From: Candidatus Heimdallarchaeota archaeon
Lineage (GTDB): Archaea > Asgardarchaeota > Heimdallarchaeia > JABLTI01
Reading direction: 5' to 3'
Length of the DNA stretch: 13,982 bases
Assembly: GCA_019058275.1 (NCBI GenBank)
Contig: JAHLVW010000008.1
Location: 1 to 13,982 of the forward strand
The position numbers and the translations under genes were made by a program. Below are positions 3,512-9,856 of the stretch, piece by piece (within the stretch, counting starts at the first letter, position 1; each line of letters starts with the position of its first letter). The notes under the pieces were generated by a model that saw nothing but the letters and a program-made list of their open reading frames with translations, had not been told where the DNA came from and ran no database searches.

Positions 3512-3590
3512 AATAACTGCTGGTCGCGTGAGAAAGGTGTGGTTGTGAACCACTTTCCGCGAATTCAAATCGCGCTGGACCCACCACTTT
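3512..3590 (+). repeat. tRNA-Ile(CAT)-derived 3' half, copy 1, containing a 33-nt BHB intron (3531-3563) at tRNA position 53/54
   Basis: TGC TGGTC GCGTG [intron] TTCAAAT CGCGC TGGACCC ACCA CTTT. Removing 3531-3563 gives a sequence nearly identical to 8314-8352. No D-arm or 5' acceptor strand lies upstream. Confidence 0.85.
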
Positions 3591-3665
3591 TTATTAATTA
3601 ATTATTTTGTTGATAAAGACTTAAATTCAGAGCTGTACAATTGTTGCATTCGGATGTAATCATTT

Positions 3666-3953
3666 TTGTCTTCCATTGCAAAGAAGAAATTTGTAGAAGT
3701 TGAGCAATTACTCATTCATGGAAATTTCAAAGAAGCAAAAGCAAACACTAAGATTATTTGGTATTATGGACACTGGCCTAAATCATTTTCTTCATTATAT
3801 TTAAGAATACGGGGGAAAAAACTTACTTTGGTAATGTTGGCAAACAGTGATGGATTAAGTCATGGATTTAACTTAGGAAATGGTGATTTTATGACATCAC
3901 CTTTTTTTATAGCATTTTTAGAAATTATAGTTACAAAAAATAAGGTGAGTTAA
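3666..3953 (+). pseudogene. Chimeric remnant: TPR-like N-terminus fused to the C-terminal end of a serine hydrolase (beta-lactamase family)
   Basis: The first ~25 aa (KKKFVEVEQLLIHGNFKEA) look like a TPR helix. The rest (IIWYYGHW...SSLYLRI..KKLTLVMLANSD) matches the terminal strands of class C beta-lactamase-like hydrolases. There is no SxxK motif. Confidence 0.5.
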
Positions 3954-3954
3954 T

Positions 3955-5206
3955 ATGAAAAATACGATTCCTATTGAAAAACGATTGTTTATTTTATCTA
4001 AGAGTTATTCACTAATAAGAGAGTATTTCGCTCATTGGCAGAACGTCAAAGATTTAGATTTTGATAAATGGTATCAAGATATCCTGCAACAAGCAATTGA
4101 AATTGAAGTTCGATATGAGTTTAATTTACTAATGATAGAATTCTTAGCAAAGCTAAATAATGGTCATACATTTTTCTTTGACAATAAATTATGGAGAAAG
4201 AGATTTTATTTAGGATTCAAAATAAAACCAATAGATAAAAATTGGTGTATAGTTCAATCCTCAACTGAAAATTTGAAAGTAGGGTCATTAGTTGAAAAAA
4301 TAAATGGGCAAGATTTCAAAGAGTTTTACATGCAAAAAAGGAAATATCTTAATGCTTCAAATGAACAATCAAGAAAATATACATTATCATCAAGATCTTT
4401 CTTGTTCCCAGAAGTATTTACACTCGAATTACAATCAAGTGAGGAAATAAAAATCAAAGTAAAACCATTAGCCGATAAAAAATCACTTTTTACTGATTTT
4501 GAAACAGAAGGAAAATGGATCAAAAAAGGTGAAATAGCATATATTAAAATACCAAGTTTTAATGAACCAAGATTTGAAGAAAAAGCTGTAGATTACTGTA
4601 AAGATTTTTTGAAAGCGAAAAAAATTATCATTGATGTTAGAGGGAATTCAGGAGGAAGTACTCCCTCAAAACTCCACAAACAATTAATGAACAAACCATA
4701 TCGTTGGTGGACTGAATCAACAAATCTACAAATTGGTTTACTTAATTACTATAATTCTTATTATCAGAAACTCGAAGAAGAGAATCCTGAAGAAGCCACT
4801 AACCCAATCGATCAAGGATGGTATTCAATAACTTCTCTTTTTAAGGATGCCCATTTGTTATGGTCAGGAGAAGAAACAAAACCAATTAAGGATGCCTTAT
4901 CAAGGAGATTTAATTATCCTAGTAGATGCCTATACTCATTCTGCTGCGGAGGATTTCACAATGCCTTTCAAAGACAATGGAAGAGCAATAATTATTGGAG
5001 AAACCACAAAGGGGAGCACAGGCCAACCATATAGTTATAGTTTTTATAATGAATTTATAGTAATGATAGGAACAAAAAGAGCTTACTTTCCAGATGGTTC
5101 ACTTTTTGAAGGAAAGGGTATTGAACCAGATATTCCAATTGAAACAACTGTCGAGGACTACAAAAAAGGGATTGATCCAATTCTACAAAAAGCCCTTAGC
5201 ATTTAG
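3955..5206 (+). pseudogene. S41 family peptidase (tail-specific/tricorn-like), frameshifted near 4897
   Basis: ORF 3955-5034 has 'LNNGHT', a PDZ-like 'LKVGSLVEKING', 'IAYIKIPSF' and 'IIIDVRGNSGGS'. The catalytic half ('LIILVDAYTHSAAEDF', 'IIGETTKGS', 'GKGIEPDI') is in ORF 4847-5206. The sequence AAG GAT GCC T TAT CAA GGA shows one extra T. A sequencing error cannot be excluded. Confidence 0.85.
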
Positions 5207-5271
5207 TTAAGAGAAATTAGAGCATGAAAAAGGGTCTAAATAACGATTGAATCTCAGCTCACTACAATAGT

Positions 5272-5349
5272 GGGCCTATAGCACAGCTTGGTTGAGTACC
5301 AGGCTCATAATCTGATGCCTAGCATGTTCCAATCGCGCTGAGCTCACCA
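5272..5349 (+). tRNA. Degenerate (probably pseudo) tRNA with CAT anticodon, archaeal tRNA-Ile2-like; repeat copy 2
   Basis: GGGCCTA TA GCAC AGCTTGGTT GAGT A CCAGG CT CAT AA TCTGA TGCCTA GCATG TTCCAAT CGCGC TGAGCTC A CCA, with the anticodon at 5306-5308. The GGGCC start and A73 fit archaeal Ile(CAU) better than Met. Each of the four stems has one mismatch. Confidence 0.8.
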
Positions 5350-5459
5350 CTTCTTTCTATTATAATACTATGAACAGTCCTCTATTTCTTAGAATAAAAT
5401 AATACTAATCCTTAACTATAGATCTTGTTTAATGTTAAGAAACTTACTTTTTTTGTTCA

Positions 5460-5906
5460 CTATTGAGAATTATATAATTCATCAATCTTTGTTGCTATTA
5501 CCTCTGCAATTTTCTCTGCAAGTATCAAACCATCTTCATCGAGCTCTTCTTTGGATTCTGGTTTTAATTGTGGATATTTTTTCATAATATCTTGAATATA
5601 AATTGTTGCAGCAGCTGGTGCACTATATTTCTCAACAGCTGTCTTGGCACATGCTTCTTCACAACCTTCTATAGCAATTGTTTTGTGTTTTTTAGCAAAT
5701 TCCCTCTCCTTTCCTCCACCTTTATGTTTTATATCTCCTGCCATAAAGAGTGGTTGGCAAAGGATGGTCGTTATCTTTGGTCGTAATTTTTCTACCACAA
5801 TTCTCGTTGCAACTCTAGTTATTGTTCCTTCTATTAAATTTTCACCACTACAAGCAATTAAACCAATTTTCGGTTTGGTAGTTAAAATTAGTTTATTCTT
5901 CTCCAT
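5460..5906 (-). CDS. DGC-domain putative zinc-binding protein
   Basis: Motifs 'LIACSG', 'ILC', 'IAIEGCEEACAK' (EGC variant of DGCxxxCA); overlaps the stop of the upstream gene. Confidence 0.8.
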   Translation of the reverse strand: MEKNKLILTTKPKIGLIACSGENLIEGTITRVATRIVVEKLRPKITTILCQPLFMAGDIKHKGGGKEREFAKKHKTIAIEGCEEACAKTAVEKYSAPAAATIYIQDIMKKYPQLKPESKEELDEDGLILAEKIAEVIATKIDELYNSQ

Positions 5907-6315
5907 TTAGCAATTCACCTACTTTATCTGCTATTTCTTTTGCAAAAATTTCCATTAATACTTTAGCATTTTCACCTAATGGATAAATATCCGGTTCAGG
6001 TTTCAAATCACGATTTTCCATTACTACTGAAGTTGATAAGAAATGGGCATCTGGTTCATCAATAACTTTAGCCACATCATAATAGGCACACATTGCAGTG
6101 CACCCATCAAGCGTTATTACTTTGTTCTTTTTGAGCTCATCAACTACTTCCTTTTTTCCTTTAACAATTAATGGTAAACATTCAATTGCTGTTTCTCCAG
6201 GTCTAAGGTCATTTACTATTCTATAGGCTGCTTGTCGACAAATGCTTCCATAGACTTTTCCTATTCCACTACAAGGTATAATGTATACTTTTTCACTCAT
6301 TTTTCTTTCATCCAT
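5893..6315 (-). CDS. DGC-domain putative zinc-binding protein
   Basis: Motifs 'IIPCSGIGK', 'ECL', 'ITLDGCTAMCA'. Confidence 0.85.
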   Translation of the reverse strand: MDERKMSEKVYIIPCSGIGKVYGSICRQAAYRIVNDLRPGETAIECLPLIVKGKKEVVDELKKNKVITLDGCTAMCAYYDVAKVIDEPDAHFLSTSVVMENRDLKPEPDIYPLGENAKVLMEIFAKEIADKVGELLNGEE

Positions 6316-8810: not shown

Positions 8811-8822
8811 GCATAAAAATAC

Positions 8823-8871
8823 ACTCCGCGACTTCGAAGGAGCAGTTCGGAACTGGGAGGAGTTCTTTTTT
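8823..8871 (+). terminator. GC-rich branched stem-loop followed by a T-tract
   Basis: ACTCC (8823-27) and GGAGT (8859-63) close two hairpins, CTTCGAAG and CAGTT-CGG-AACTG, followed by TCTTTTTT. It begins 12 nt after the upstream stop. Confidence 0.4.
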
Positions 8872-8952
8872 CATGTTTTTTTTCCAGACTAATGCAAATT
8901 CTATTTAGAAGCACTTCTTTAATCATAATAATCAAAATATTGGGGGATTCTT

Positions 8953-9267
8953 TTGGCGAAAGTAAAAATTACTGTAATTAAGAAGTTCAAATCCAAAGAT
9001 GTTTTTGGAAAAGATTATAAAAATCCGAAAGGAGAAATCATTCCTGAATGTCCTGTTTTTGAAGAAGGACAAGTATTGATTTCAAAAGATGCAGAGAAAC
9101 CAGAAGGTTTCTGTGGCTTTGGTTGGAGAGCAATCCAACCGGAATTAATGGTTCTTAGTTTTGGAGGAAATTTCTGGGAAAGCTGGACTGAACCAGGAAC
9201 TATGTATGTTGCATGTCCAGATGGCATTCGACCTGTTTCTTTTAAGCTTGAAAAAATTGAAGATTAG
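8953..9267 (+). CDS. TIGR04076-like conserved Cys-containing protein
   Basis: 'KVKITVIK', 'CPVFEEGQ', 'PEGFC..GW', 'ACPDGIRPVSFKLEKI'. Confidence 0.85.
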   Translation: MAKVKITVIKKFKSKDVFGKDYKNPKGEIIPECPVFEEGQVLISKDAEKPEGFCGFGWRAIQPELMVLSFGGNFWESWTEPGTMYVACPDGIRPVSFKLEKIED

Positions 9268-9283
9268 TCGATTCTTATGAATT

Positions 9284-9340
9284 AGGTTACATTATCTTTG
9301 CCCTGCGTGTTCCAATCGCGCTGGGCCCACCACTTTCTAT
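9284..9340 (+). repeat. tRNA-Ile(CAT)-derived 3' half, copy 4 (no intron)
   Basis: AGGTTACATTATCTT TGCCCT GCGTG TTCCAAT CGCGC TGGGCCC ACCA CTTTCTAT. The T-arm and acceptor 3' strand are intact; the anticodon arm is eroded. Confidence 0.85.
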
Positions 9341-9555
9341 TTTAACAGCAATTTTCAAATTATTATTGCTTATGTCATATGAAGCATAGCTTTATAAGGC
9401 ATGAATAAACGCTTTCCATTGTATACATATGAAACATTGAGATAGGAATGAAGTAATTTTTGGTTATTAACTTTCGAGTTTGAATTCTCAAAATTTTATC
9501 TTAAAATTTCTTTTCAATATTTTATGTATAACAAAATATTCGGTGAAAAAACAAA

Positions 9556-9714
9556 ATGAGTAGATATAATAACTACAGTAGACCACAACGAGAAATGCAC
9601 GAAGTTACTTGTGCAGACTGCGGTCAAAAAACAGAAGTTCCTTTCAAACCTGATGGTGAACGACCTGTTTACTGTCAAGACTGTTACAGAAAGCGAAAAC
9701 CAAGTAGATATTAG
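9556..9714 (+). CDS. CxxC-x17-CxxC domain protein (52 aa, putative zinc-binding)
   Basis: MSRYNNYSRPQREMHEVTCADCGQKTEVPFKPDGERPVYCQDCYRKRKPSRY*, with exactly 17 residues between the CxxC pairs. GGTGA ribosome site at 9542-9546. Below the ORF track length cutoff. Confidence 0.92.
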   Translation: MSRYNNYSRPQREMHEVTCADCGQKTEVPFKPDGERPVYCQDCYRKRKPSRY

Positions 9715-9815
9715 AATAAAAATATCTATGAATCATTCCTAGTTGAATTATAACTTATTTTATGTTATATTTCATGCTAGTTCTTTTTTTATTACAAGAT
9801 TTAATTTAATCCTAA

Positions 9816-9856
9816 GGTTGCGTGTTCAAATCGCATTAGCCTGCCACTTCCTATTT
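9816..9856 (+). repeat. tRNA-Ile(CAT)-derived 3' half, copy 5 (more degenerate, no intron)
   Basis: GGTT GCGTG TTCAAAT CGCAT TAGCCT GCCA CTTCCTATTT. Confidence 0.7.

Follow-up and report, generated by a model that had tools for sequence, protein, structure and literature searches.

Tail copies and gene units in the window

The DNA analyzed here (the window; 13,982 nucleotides) is one contig of a Candidatus Heimdallarchaeota metagenome-assembled genome (MAG) and lies within a 22-kb island. In the sequence and its list of open reading frames, we found five stretches derived from the 3′ portion of a tRNA(CAT) gene, hereafter called tails, all on the + strand and all intergenic. The consensus given in the first-pass annotation matched four of them at three or fewer mismatches, whereas 0 matches were expected from 200 shuffles of the window. 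The fifth copy is decayed; it is visible by eye in the sequence and was recovered by nhmmer. Thus, the five copies claimed in that annotation are present. The features of the window are as follows.

1-3286, - strand: MacB-like ABC permease and 171-aa orphan gene, part of a larger unit from contig C58
1-2700, - strand: MacB-like ABC permease (Pfam MacB_PCD), running on into C58
2771-3286, - strand: orphan gene, 171 aa
3319-3513, + strand: remnant ORF, whose C-terminus (...KIFVLKI, stop) is similar to that of a 568-aa cassette gene (...KLFALKI, stop)
3517-3586, + strand: tail copy 1 (cp1), I-type tRNA(CAT) 3′ part, spanning the anticodon-stem 3′ strand through the encoded CCA
3587-5271, + strand: unit a, hydrolase remnant and S41 peptidase
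3666-3953, + strand: hydrolase remnant of unit a
3955-5206, + strand: S41 peptidase of unit a, frameshifted in the window
5272-5349, + strand: tail copy 2 (cp2), full-length decayed I-type tRNA(CAT) pseudogene
5350-8313, mixed strands: unit b, DGC-domain genes, ferredoxin and 137-aa gene (-) and ArsR (+)
8314-8349, + strand: tail copy 3 (cp3), consensus match
8350-9299, + strand: unit c, zinc-ribbon membrane protein and TIGR04076 protein
8526-8810, + strand: zinc-ribbon membrane protein of unit c
8953-9267, + strand: TIGR04076 protein of unit c
9300-9332, + strand: tail copy 4 (cp4), exact consensus match
9333-9815, + strand: unit d, zinc-finger unit of 0.5 kb
9556-9714, + strand: CxxC-x17-CxxC treble-clef zinc-finger gene of unit d, 52 aa
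about 9816-9847, + strand: tail copy 5 (cp5), decayed, with a 1-nt deletion
9848-13982, mixed strands: more conserved distal part of the island, with LLM oxidoreductase, PLP decarboxylase, Asp/Glu racemase and amidohydrolase

As proposed in the first-pass annotation, the tails divide unrelated genes (S41 peptidase; DGC/GcvH/ferredoxin; ArsR; zinc ribbon; TIGR04076; CxxC-x17-CxxC; LLM) into units. Unit b contains three DGC-domain genes, one of which is a GcvH fusion. The 568-aa cassette gene, whose end the remnant ORF resembles, abuts a tail copy in other genomes. The cp1 tail retains a 28-33-nt T-arm intron between the variable loop/T-stem and the T-loop; the same insertion is present in an intron-bearing tRNA-Ile(GAT) on contig C61 and in fragments from other genomes. 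The cp2 pseudogene has mismatches in every stem and scores 24.4 bits with the Rfam tRNA model, below the 29-bit cut-off; ARAGORN makes no call there. The window itself is without an intact tRNA. The S41 peptidase is an intact 416-aa gene in sister assemblies, from which the frameshifts of both this gene and the LLM gene are missing; these frameshifts are strain-level or assembly-level differences. Pseudogenes and remnants are present in the island.

Position of the island and sharing of units between relatives

The island was reconstructed as the contig chain C29-C58-C59-C46-C56, joined through exact 141-bp overlaps. Its head, at the start of the chain, is an intact tRNA-Met(CAT) on the neighboring contig C29. 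Therefore, the clustering of tails in one orientation behind an intact tRNA, which had been suggested as a check, was observed, but the tRNA is a tRNA-Met(CAT) outside the window. The genomes G007 and G010 have the same head tRNA as the source genome, and a conspecific strain (JACCLD) has an intact I-type tRNA(CAT) as the head. Measured from the head tRNA to the conserved right flank, the island spans about 8, 22 and 32 kb in G010, G000 and G007, respectively.

Because the island is split over five contigs with 141-bp overlaps and contamination of the bin is 6.8%, the tails could be suspected to be marks of chimeric joins. This is hardly credible. At 99.9% identity, a 2.26-Mb NCBI contig and Logan contigs of two runs show the gene order of the chain; a 595-kb contig from another strain shows it at 98.3-98.8%. 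Two independent public assemblies agree with the placement of the window in the island, and similar arrays are found in MAGs of other studies. Thus, misassembly, named in the first-pass annotation as a way in which its idea could fail, is contradicted by independent contigs with the same order.

Comparison with relatives, as had been suggested, showed that gene gain and loss break exactly at the tails. For example, a 687-bp unit is present in G003 and missing from G007, and the junction has a chimeric tail. Unit b is 87-88% identical to its counterparts in G007 and G003, and the homology stops exactly at cp3; this DGC block is 88% identical whereas its flanks are 68-77% identical. Over 19.6 kb, the conspecific JACCLD strain shows 98.8% identity. 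The homology sets in about 10 nt ahead of the tail located at 10608 of the supercontig (SC), and the divergence falls exactly on the 5′ edge of this tail; proximal to this point, JACCLD possesses at least 12 other units. At about 77% identity, the distal part of the window (9848-13982) aligns colinearly with G007 and G003.

Units are also shared and reordered between species. G007 and G010 share the methyltransferase unit at 95% identity, in contrast to flanks of about 65%, and the order of this unit and the 568-aa unit is reversed between G004 and G007. JACCLD and G003 differ in where the amino-oxidase unit lies. Unit d has five different left neighbors in five congeneric genomes (six strains). 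A unit consists of one to four genes followed by its own tail copy, and in most cases it is one intact gene that has flanks of its own; the genes of the island lie in both orientations and have their own upstream regions.

Tail family and search for recombinases

The island is present in at least seven congeneric genomes and in metagenome contigs. We collected 68 tail copies (56 I-type and 12 M-type) on 12 contigs, which represent seven congeneric genomes (one in two strains) and metagenome contigs. Within every one of these contigs, the tails are co-oriented (the sum of n-1 is 56), and the survey yielded no copy in reverse orientation. The spacing of tails has a median of 1168 bp (range, 110-6741 bp), and I-type and M-type tails are interleaved in one array. 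Each tail covers 23-45 nt at the 3′ end of a tRNA(CAT) gene and stops about 3 nt past the encoded CCA. The start varies (anticodon-stem 3′ strand, variable loop or T-arm), so that the 5′ edge differs between units. In crenarchaeal elements, att sites are 29-69 bp with a median of 45 (PMC6563490); the tail length is thus compatible with archaeal att sites. Many tails, such as cp5, decay about as fast as their flanks or faster, and the site orthologous to cp3 in G007 and G003 is barely recognizable. Therefore, many tails are dead scars and no longer maintained as sites.

The first-pass annotation had offered a dispersed, SINE-like family as one of its two alternatives. Most copies are without the T-arm intron and end in CCA like a mature tRNA, as expected of retroposition. 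However, whole-genome search confined this type of tail to the island and the related tRNA-Ile(GAT) gene, and it was never reversed. Furthermore, nearly all tRNA genes of the source genome encode CCA, intron-less gene versions exist, and conservation of the tails reaches beyond the CCA. The base that follows the CCA (position +1) is C in about two thirds of the tails although the genomic G+C content is 32.5%, which points to an origin from the gene (at the DNA level) and not from mature tRNA. The distribution of copies contradicts a SINE-like family, which we consider very improbable.

Profile searches gave no match to tyrosine (PF00589) or serine (PF00239) recombinases on the G000 island contigs, and a search of ten sister genomes with PF00589 gave no match on their island contigs. 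By tblastn, no remnants of the six tyrosine recombinases of the source genome were found in the arrays. None of more than 50 units in the seven congeneric genomes (one in two strains) contains an integrase or a fragment of one. Thus, a local tyrosine or serine recombinase is absent from the islands, in line with the first-pass statement that the units have no integrase. No autonomous element with this tail was found in IMG/VR, and neither a tyrosine recombinase nor the Cas1-like family described below was found on the stored parts of the tail-bearing metagenome contigs. Elsewhere, the source genome does contain larger tRNA-linked elements, such as one behind tRNA-Pro on C33.

A 655-aa ORF models as Cas1; it lies on C29, upstream of the head tRNA-Met by 4.8 kb. 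All 50 Foldseek matches listed are Cas1-family proteins, and the best of those listed is a casposase in complex with its integration product (6opm, E 1.9e-7). E423, H506, D516 and E519 are invariant across the 13 homologues of this ORF. By E. coli numbering, these residues would correspond to the catalytic positions. Distant paralogues lie in other tRNA-linked islands (C48 and C33), and the closest ones (C16 and C89) are not near tRNAs. A 650-aa nuclease-domain gene adjoins the Cas1-like gene just upstream of the head tRNA. It has six paralogues, five of which are followed within 0.1-2.2 kb by a same-strand tRNA gene or an orphan tail; the protein matches generic PD-(D/E)xK domains only. The Cas1-like module is missing from this position in G007, G010 and JACCLD, and it contains an in-frame stop in the 99.9%-identical sister assembly.

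Origin of the array and comparison with known systems

The checks suggested in the first-pass annotation favor its other alternative, a cassette array mobilized in trans: the array, the orientation and the breakpoints were observed, and site-specific insertion by an enzyme acting in trans is what we infer. The locus is probably a tRNA-anchored accretion island, in a genus of Ca. Heimdallarchaeota, of integrase-less units that recombine at tail sites. The tails would be copies of the recombination site that bound units of a hypervariable accessory-gene island, and by recombination at them units may enter, leave and swap places, drawn from a pool common to strains and species. Turnover would be quickest beside the head tRNA, with older units shifted distally, where their tails decay. 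Because the units are devoid of recombinase genes, the enzyme must work in trans; another locus of the genome or a visiting element may supply it. Part of the shuffling may instead be plain homologous recombination between tails, since recombination between 25-45-bp repeats could yield equal breakpoints.

Two other explanations have to be weighed. The tails might be passive scars of once-autonomous integrase elements (5-40 kb), each decayed to a few genes, with later reshuffling by general homologous recombination between scars and by DNA exchange between strains; no dedicated cassette system would then exist. It is well established that tRNA att sites are re-used in tandem and that partial tRNAs occur scattered (bioRxiv 10.1101/2020.12.28.424599; PMC6563490; PMC5704250), and the neutral-like decay of many tails, the pseudogenes and remnants in the island and the bigger tRNA-linked elements in the same genome are consistent with this. 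However, we consider it unlikely: the complete lack of integrases and their fragments, the median unit of 1.2 kb holding mostly one intact gene with its own flanks, and the recurrence of the same small unit end to end in several contexts argue against it, and the swap of about 10 units in a conspecific strain is fast for decay products. Alternatively, the Cas1-like protein, perhaps with the nuclease-domain protein, might insert gene-sized DNA at the tRNA tail, the tail being copied as a long target-site duplication comparable to a CRISPR repeat or casposon target, so that a stack of "mega-spacers" is formed. The inserted DNA would need no attP, and the polarity and single tail orientation would be explained despite the mixed gene orientation; the invariant residues, the closeness of the ORF to the head tRNA, its distant paralogues in tRNA-linked islands and the paralogues of the nuclease gene that precede tRNA genes or orphan tails also speak for it. 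Nevertheless, we regard such insertion as quite improbable, given the absence of the module from three related loci, the in-frame stop, the nearest paralogues away from tRNAs and the generic nuclease matches. Moreover, no terminal inverted repeats were noted, and the 23-45-nt tails with sharp, unit-specific 5′ edges fit attP-type homology better than a duplication set by a ruler.

The accretion island favored here shares single features with several known systems. Asgard Cas1 homologues were treated by Makarova et al. 2020, as cited in PMC8730458, and Family 2 casposons, which can occur in tandem, have tRNA 3′ ends as their targets (PMC6563490). A Cas1-fold gene near the head tRNA and the polar repeat-insert-repeat layout are reminiscent of casposons and CRISPR adaptation; however, PolB was not observed, and the Cas1-like gene is not a conserved part of the locus. 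The casposon target-site duplication is 14-15 bp, whereas the repeats here are longer, with variable 5′ edges, and the inserts are genes (0.4-6.7 kb). Integrons are functionally similar in that they are ordered stacks of small recombinase-less units; each unit has a single recombination site on one side, and genomes share units and differ in their order. However, the sites here are direct tRNA-derived repeats instead of attC palindromes, and the genes run both ways with their own upstream DNA and no common promoter. Membership among integrons, which the first-pass wording "integron-like" might imply, is not supported, given this mixed orientation and the absence of an IntI adjoining the array and of an attC-like fold.

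Archaeal tRNA-integrating elements (SSV-type and others; PMC6563490, PMC8371274, PMC7253208) also use the tRNA 3′ part as a target, have att sites of 25-70 bp and are known to form arrays by re-use of the site. They are 5-40 kb or more and carry or split an integrase gene, whereas no integrase halves flank the units here. CIMEs of streptococci have lost their integration genes, keep attL and attR, accrete in tandem at tRNA or other att sites and can be moved by the recombinase of another element; they are described as ICE/IME decay products, usually one or two per site (PMC5704250). In contrast, single-gene units form long stacks in the island, mobilization is putative, and there is no known intact element related to them. 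A similar layout is known from tycheposons, which build tRNA-anchored islands in Prochlorococcus (Hackl et al., bioRxiv 10.1101/2020.12.28.424599). In both cases, an intact tRNA is proximal, partial tRNAs (about 40 nt in tycheposon islands) lie between insertions scattered through the island, the cargo is accessory genes, and heterogeneity peaks beside the tRNA and drops distally. Tycheposons possess their own tyrosine or large serine recombinase, usually with replication genes, and measure several kb to more than 10 kb. The islands of the seven congeneric genomes (one in two strains) differ from them in their more than 50 small units (median, 1.2 kb), none with a recombinase, in the interleaving of I and M tail types in one array and in their Asgard archaeal host.

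Tail copies and the island around them

The first-pass annotation had described an array of five co-oriented copies of a tRNA-Ile(CAT)-derived repeat. A search of the window with its consensus gave four + strand matches against none expected, and a fifth, decayed copy lies at ~9816-9847. Thus, the array was confirmed. No tRNA was called in the window by ARAGORN. All copies lie between genes, and the gene contents of the intervals agree with the earlier description. Hereafter, a copy of the 3' part of a tRNA(CAT) gene is called a tail, and the gene or genes between two tails are called a unit.

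The contig that makes up the window (C59) belongs to an assembly of 4.12 Mb in 118 contigs with 32.5% G+C. Five contigs of this assembly were joined at exact 141-bp end overlaps (C29+, C58-, C59+, C46-, C56+) into a supercontig (SC) of 37,894 bp; subtraction of 13,847 from an SC coordinate gives the window coordinate. The 2.26-Mb contig of the sister assembly GCA_019058195.1 matches SC 1-16700 at 99.93% and SC 9306-29748 at 99.89% identity, and the contig order is also matched by Logan contigs from two runs. At the start of the island there is an intact tRNA-Met(CAT), which we call the head tRNA. The five copies of the window are distal to the tail at SC 10658 and also lie on the + strand.

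Head tRNA and tails of the island (window coordinates unless marked SC)
SC 6778-6854 (C29), + strand: intact head tRNA-Met(CAT), M-type; Rfam 68.3 bits
SC 7340, + strand: M-type tail downstream of the head tRNA
SC 10608, + strand: I-type tail; a decayed M-type tail comes directly after it, at SC 10658
3517-3586, + strand: copy 1, from the 3' strand of the anticodon stem to the encoded CCA, with a 28-33-nt insertion in the T-arm region
5272-5349, + strand: copy 2, full-length tRNA with a CAT anticodon and mismatches in every stem; Rfam 24.4 bits, below the tRNA cut-off of 29 bits
Copies 3 and 4: 3' tRNA parts without an intron
~9816-9847, + strand: copy 5, a decayed 3' tRNA part without an intron

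Because the T-arm and acceptor strand of the I-type tail are nearly those of tRNA-Ile(GAT), the I-type tail likely originates from tRNA-Ile2(CAU), although Ile2 and Met could not be distinguished. In about two-thirds of the copies, C is found at position +1 after CCA, which points to gene DNA rather than mature tRNA as the source of the tails. The T-loop varies among tails (TTCAAAT, TTCCAAT and TTCTAAT); an attempt to place the crossover point within the tail from these variants was abandoned because the informative sites were too few. A sixth, heavily decayed tail ahead of the decarboxylase gene (window ~10847-10880) was considered and judged unconvincing.

Two genes in the window are frameshifted and are intact in sister assemblies, namely the S41 peptidase gene (3955-5206; 416 aa in loci L054 and L056) and the LLM oxidoreductase gene (10035-10805; 256 aa in locus L057). 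These frameshifts are strain polymorphisms or assembly errors. The operon at 5460-7894 (- strand) encodes three DGC-domain proteins, one of which is fused to a glycine-cleavage H-protein domain, together with a 2x[4Fe-4S] ferredoxin and a 137-aa Cys-rich protein; a divergent ArsR gene adjoins it.

Orphan 3' tails of tRNA-Leu, tRNA-Pro, tRNA-Val, tRNA-Ala and other tRNAs were seen on contigs C33, C53, C107, C108, C52, C19, C48 and C73 of the same genome. Where the parent tRNA is on the same contig, the orphan tail lies downstream of it in the same orientation. Because tails of other tRNAs occur on several contigs, the architecture is general in this genome.

Behavior of the units in related genomes

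Of 10 congeneric genomes, 7 contained co-oriented clusters of I-type tails, whereas 20 genomes from other genera contained none; the I-type tail is present on metagenome contigs too. The tRNA-Met(CAT) head is common to the islands of G007 and G010, two of the congeneric genomes. On contig C89 of G007, tRNA-Met is followed by at least 13 tails across 24 kb. On contig C21 of G010, the tRNA-Met has two introns (one canonical and one in the T-loop) and is followed mainly by M-type tails. Partial arrays were found in G003, G004, G005 and G002, and the array of the conspecific strain JACCLD is headed by an intact I-type tRNA(CAT). With heads counted, 68 tails (56 I-type and 12 M-type) were collected on 12 contigs, and all 68 are co-oriented within their contig. 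The 53 intervals between tails have a median of 1,168 bp (range 110-6,741 bp), and some units that seemed to carry two genes are two single-gene units with a decayed tail between them. The head tRNA and the conserved right flank are ~8 kb apart in G010, 22 kb apart in G000 (the genome of the window) and 32 kb apart in G007. The papers on Asgard mobile elements that we consulted do not describe arrays of this kind.

If the units are cassettes, gene gain and loss between relatives should break at the repeats, as the first-pass annotation had proposed, and this is what was found: homology starts and stops at tails both between G000 and JACCLD and between G003 and G007. A 595-kb contig of JACCLD (GCA_050009915.1) is 98.8% identical to the SC over 19.6 kb. 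The homology starts ~10 nt ahead of the I-type tail at SC 10608, and the two strains differ only proximal to SC 10598, where G000 has a four-gene unit with an Mrr-type nuclease. In JACCLD, this side is occupied by at least 12 other units, and an I-type tail closes each of them. In G003, a 687-bp unit lies between two tails; in G007, a single tail stands there, and it is chimeric, with its left part like the first G003 tail and its right part like the second. A 69%-identical relative of this 687-bp unit occurs elsewhere in the conserved flank in G000; it has no flanking tails and was therefore not accepted as a moved unit.

Individual units recur in different surroundings. Copies of the 0.5-kb zinc-finger unit (window 9333-9815), which encodes a CxxC-x17-CxxC protein, are found in G003, G004 (three copies), G007, G010 and JACCLD and can be aligned with it over its full length. 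The unit has five different left neighbors and at least four different right neighbors. The order of the methyltransferase unit and the 568-aa unit is reversed between G004 and G007. For the methyltransferase gene, identity between G007 and G010 is 95%, against ~65% in the flanks; the tails on either side of it are I-type in G007 and M-type in G010. Similarly, the block with the DGC operon is 88% identical between G000 and G007, and the flank 68-77%. G000, G003 and G007 have this operon as a single 3-kb unit, which the locus in G010 lacks. Variability is highest beside the tRNA and the distal part is conserved; for example, the distal order from the DGC block to the amidohydrolase is common to G000, G003 and G007. 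Genes lie on both strands inside units.

The 5' edge of the tail at the right end is specific to each unit, regardless of which unit comes next. Therefore, the movable module consists of the genes plus the right-hand tail. The zinc-finger gene also has a paralogue at C98:29014-29428, which shares the gene and both flanks with the unit at 77% identity over 412 nt and has no tails around it. Because this tail-less paralogue shares both flanks, the comparison suggests that chromosomal genes can turn into units, or the reverse.

Comparison with known systems and candidate enzymes

Two interpretations had been offered at first, an integron-like gene-capture array and a dispersed SINE-like repeat family. 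They are supported in part: the cassette array is upheld, but the array belongs neither to integrons nor to SINEs. The array is not an integron. An IntI-type tyrosine recombinase adjoins the array of an integron, whereas none is present on the island contigs here. Integron attC sites are imperfect palindromes that fold as single strands, whereas the tails are direct copies of the tRNA 3' part; the strongest single-stranded fold of a tail has only the 5-bp T-arm hairpin and four flanking pairs, and folding is weaker for the remaining strands and copies. Moreover, integron cassettes are mostly promoter-less, co-oriented and served by a common promoter. In contrast, genes here occur in both orientations, and the zinc-finger unit has the same flanks as its non-array paralogue. 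The array works like an integron, but it is made of tRNA tails and has no linked recombinase. Judged by its distribution, the repeat is not SINE-like: beyond the tRNA-Ile(GAT) gene on C61, the 4.1 Mb contain six I-type sites (the five of the window and another on the adjoining C58), and these are confined to the island and co-oriented along it.

The pattern matches the model of tycheposon-built islands in Prochlorococcus (bioRxiv 10.1101/2020.12.28.424599) and the tandem accretion with integrase-less CIMEs in streptococci (PMC5704250). As in such accretion islands, there is an intact head tRNA (in G000, G007, G010 and JACCLD); co-oriented partial 3' tRNA copies, 23-45 nt long and ending just beyond CCA, bound the insertions; and turnover is fastest by the head, with conserved distal units whose tails are decaying. 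Archaeal elements re-use att sites, and the tail length here fits archaeal att sites (PMC6563490). Accretion islands also carry integrase-bearing elements at the same att site in some genomes, but none was found in the genomes searched here. The array departs from known cases in that all units are small and lack an integrase, the stacks reach at least 10 units, two tail types occur in one array, and the host is an Asgard archaeon.

The earlier remark that the units lack an integrase held across 11 genomes: PF00589 (tyrosine recombinase) had no match on any island contig of G000 and ten sister genomes, including a 228-kb contig of G010, and tblastn with the six tyrosine recombinases of G000 found no remnant in the arrays. 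None of these six is on an island contig, and none has a called tRNA near it on its contig. Most genomes of the genus keep one tyrosine recombinase of 350-360 aa, probably an Xer-like enzyme. PF00239 (serine recombinase), searched in G000, had no match on island contigs, and the two serine recombinases of this genome are both on non-island contigs. Neither the 11 genomes searched in the genus nor IMG/VR nor the examined parts of metagenome contigs yielded an integrase-bearing element using the same att site. For an autonomous element with the tail, there was no exact match in IMG/VR, and the metagenome scan yielded only more arrays and a single tRNA(CAT) gene that is intact and contains an intron.

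Because the features match those of known tRNA-anchored islands, yet the units are small and integrase-less, we propose that the array is probably an accretion island of non-autonomous units, which would recombine at tRNA-tail sites through an enzyme supplied in trans. In the main rival explanation, the tails might be dead scars, with all later shuffling due to homologous recombination; the decay of many tails and the lack of a known enzyme speak for it, and we nevertheless consider this explanation unlikely. A candidate enzyme is encoded upstream of the head tRNA.

Candidate enzyme genes on C29
1-1965 (locus L046), - strand: 655-aa Cas1-like gene, upstream of the head tRNA-Met
4748-6700, + strand: gene for a 650-aa protein with a C-terminal NERD/PD-(D/E)xK nuclease domain, ending 80 nt before the tRNA

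The 655-aa protein has no match in Pfam or NCBIfam, and its homologues are restricted to Asgard MAGs. Its structural model (pLDDT 67.5) has a Cas1 fold: all 50 of the 50 Foldseek matches listed are Cas1-family proteins, with a casposase-DNA complex at the top. E, H, D (H+10) and E (H+13) are invariant among its homologues, and the family has an N-terminal extension with many invariant cysteines. The protein is distantly related to a protein on C48 with a weak Cas1 match. Paralogues of 655-680 aa are encoded at C16:37199-39166, C89:106450-108410 and C78:3-414 of G000, and the module of 655-aa, 253-aa and 527-aa proteins upstream of the head tRNA-Met is also present on C16 and C89. The 527-aa protein has a LAGLIDADG-like domain. 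Many Cas1-like copies in the genus contain one or two in-frame stops, often TGA. PMC8730458 speaks of an "unprecedented diversity of Cas1 homologs" in Asgard archaea, and the 655-aa protein fits this description.

The 650-aa gene has paralogues on C87, C73, C84, C48 and C33, and in five of the six copies a tRNA gene or orphan tail on the same strand is found 0.1-2.2 kb downstream. Its product has a novel beta-rich N-terminal part; the model (pLDDT 82) matches nuclease domains alone (Can2, Cdn1, NucS/EndoMS and AF1548), and neither Cas4 nor a recombinase was among the matches of the fold search. A conserved divergent promoter-like intergenic segment of ~160 bp (C29 4606-4766) parts the Cas1-like module from the 650-aa gene. 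The same segment was seen at five loci (C29, C16, C105, C48 and C27), each time between the side of the Cas1-like module and a downstream gene.

A bolder explanation is that the Asgard Cas1-family protein and the tRNA-linked PD-(D/E)xK protein insert gene-sized DNA by the head tRNA and duplicate the tail. A dedicated gene-capture system would then use the tRNA tail as its insertion site again and again, and its CRISPR-adaptation-like or casposon-like reaction would build gene arrays instead of spacer arrays. We regard this as very improbable. The module is missing at the locus in G007, G010 and the conspecific JACCLD; the copy in a 99.9%-identical sister assembly has an in-frame stop, although that of G000 has none; and the 5' edges of the tails, which vary and are specific to each unit, are more in keeping with attP-type homology than with a duplication of fixed length. 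Casposons make target-site duplications of 14-15 bp, whereas the repeats here are 23-45 nt with variable 5' edges. Casposons also have terminal inverted repeats and a family B DNA polymerase; no polymerase family was found among the island genes with a Pfam scan or precomputed Pfam hits. A casposon carries its Cas1-family integrase within the element; in G000, a Cas1-fold gene is present and lies upstream of the head tRNA, outside the units. We also considered the Cas1-like module as an element bracketed by a left copy of tRNA-Met, and found no such copy in the 12 kb upstream; this search gave a weak I-type relic at 459-483 of locus L052.

Gene gain, introns and tRNA(CAT) genes

Among known prokaryotes, Asgard archaea are the closest relatives of eukaryotes. 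The locus shows a concrete and apparently general route of gene gain in one Heimdall-group genus, in which accessory genes sit behind tRNA genes as small plug-in units. The cargo includes a restriction-type nuclease, a methyltransferase, an ABC transporter, a peptidase, a redox operon and small zinc-finger proteins. Units are swapped between strains of 98-99% identity and shared across species with ~65% identical backbones. If the enzyme is found, it would reveal either a new in-trans mobilization system of archaea or, at the boldest, a new function of the enigmatic Asgard Cas1 homologues.

An old idea, reportedly of Randau and Soll, holds that archaeal tRNA introns guard genes against integration, and the dense targeting of tRNA tails bears on it. 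The genomes in which tRNA tails are so often used as insertion sites also have many non-canonical introns. A T-arm intron is kept in tail fragments at window 3528-3560, at ~1436-1530 of locus L002 (contig C21 of G010) and at 1036-1106 of locus L038. The insertion type of copy 1 is also present in the intron-bearing tRNA-Ile(GAT) on C61, which has two introns, in fragments of G010 and in those of one metagenome contig.

The tRNA(CAT) set of G000 consists of one decayed I-type tRNA (window 5272-5349), one M-type elongator-like gene and one initiator. An intact I-type gene for AUA decoding may be unassembled in this genome, which is 92.8% complete. In JACCLD, the intact I-type tRNA(CAT) gene at the array head lies on the reverse strand at 5759-5836 of locus L061. 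Finally, in the G007 array (locus L021 on contig C89), three minus-strand cassette genes (5908-6987, 10385-11041 and 16270-16485) extend into the upstream tail and end in GGPSAI*, which is encoded by the reverse complement of the acceptor and T-arm, with the stop codon derived from the T-loop.
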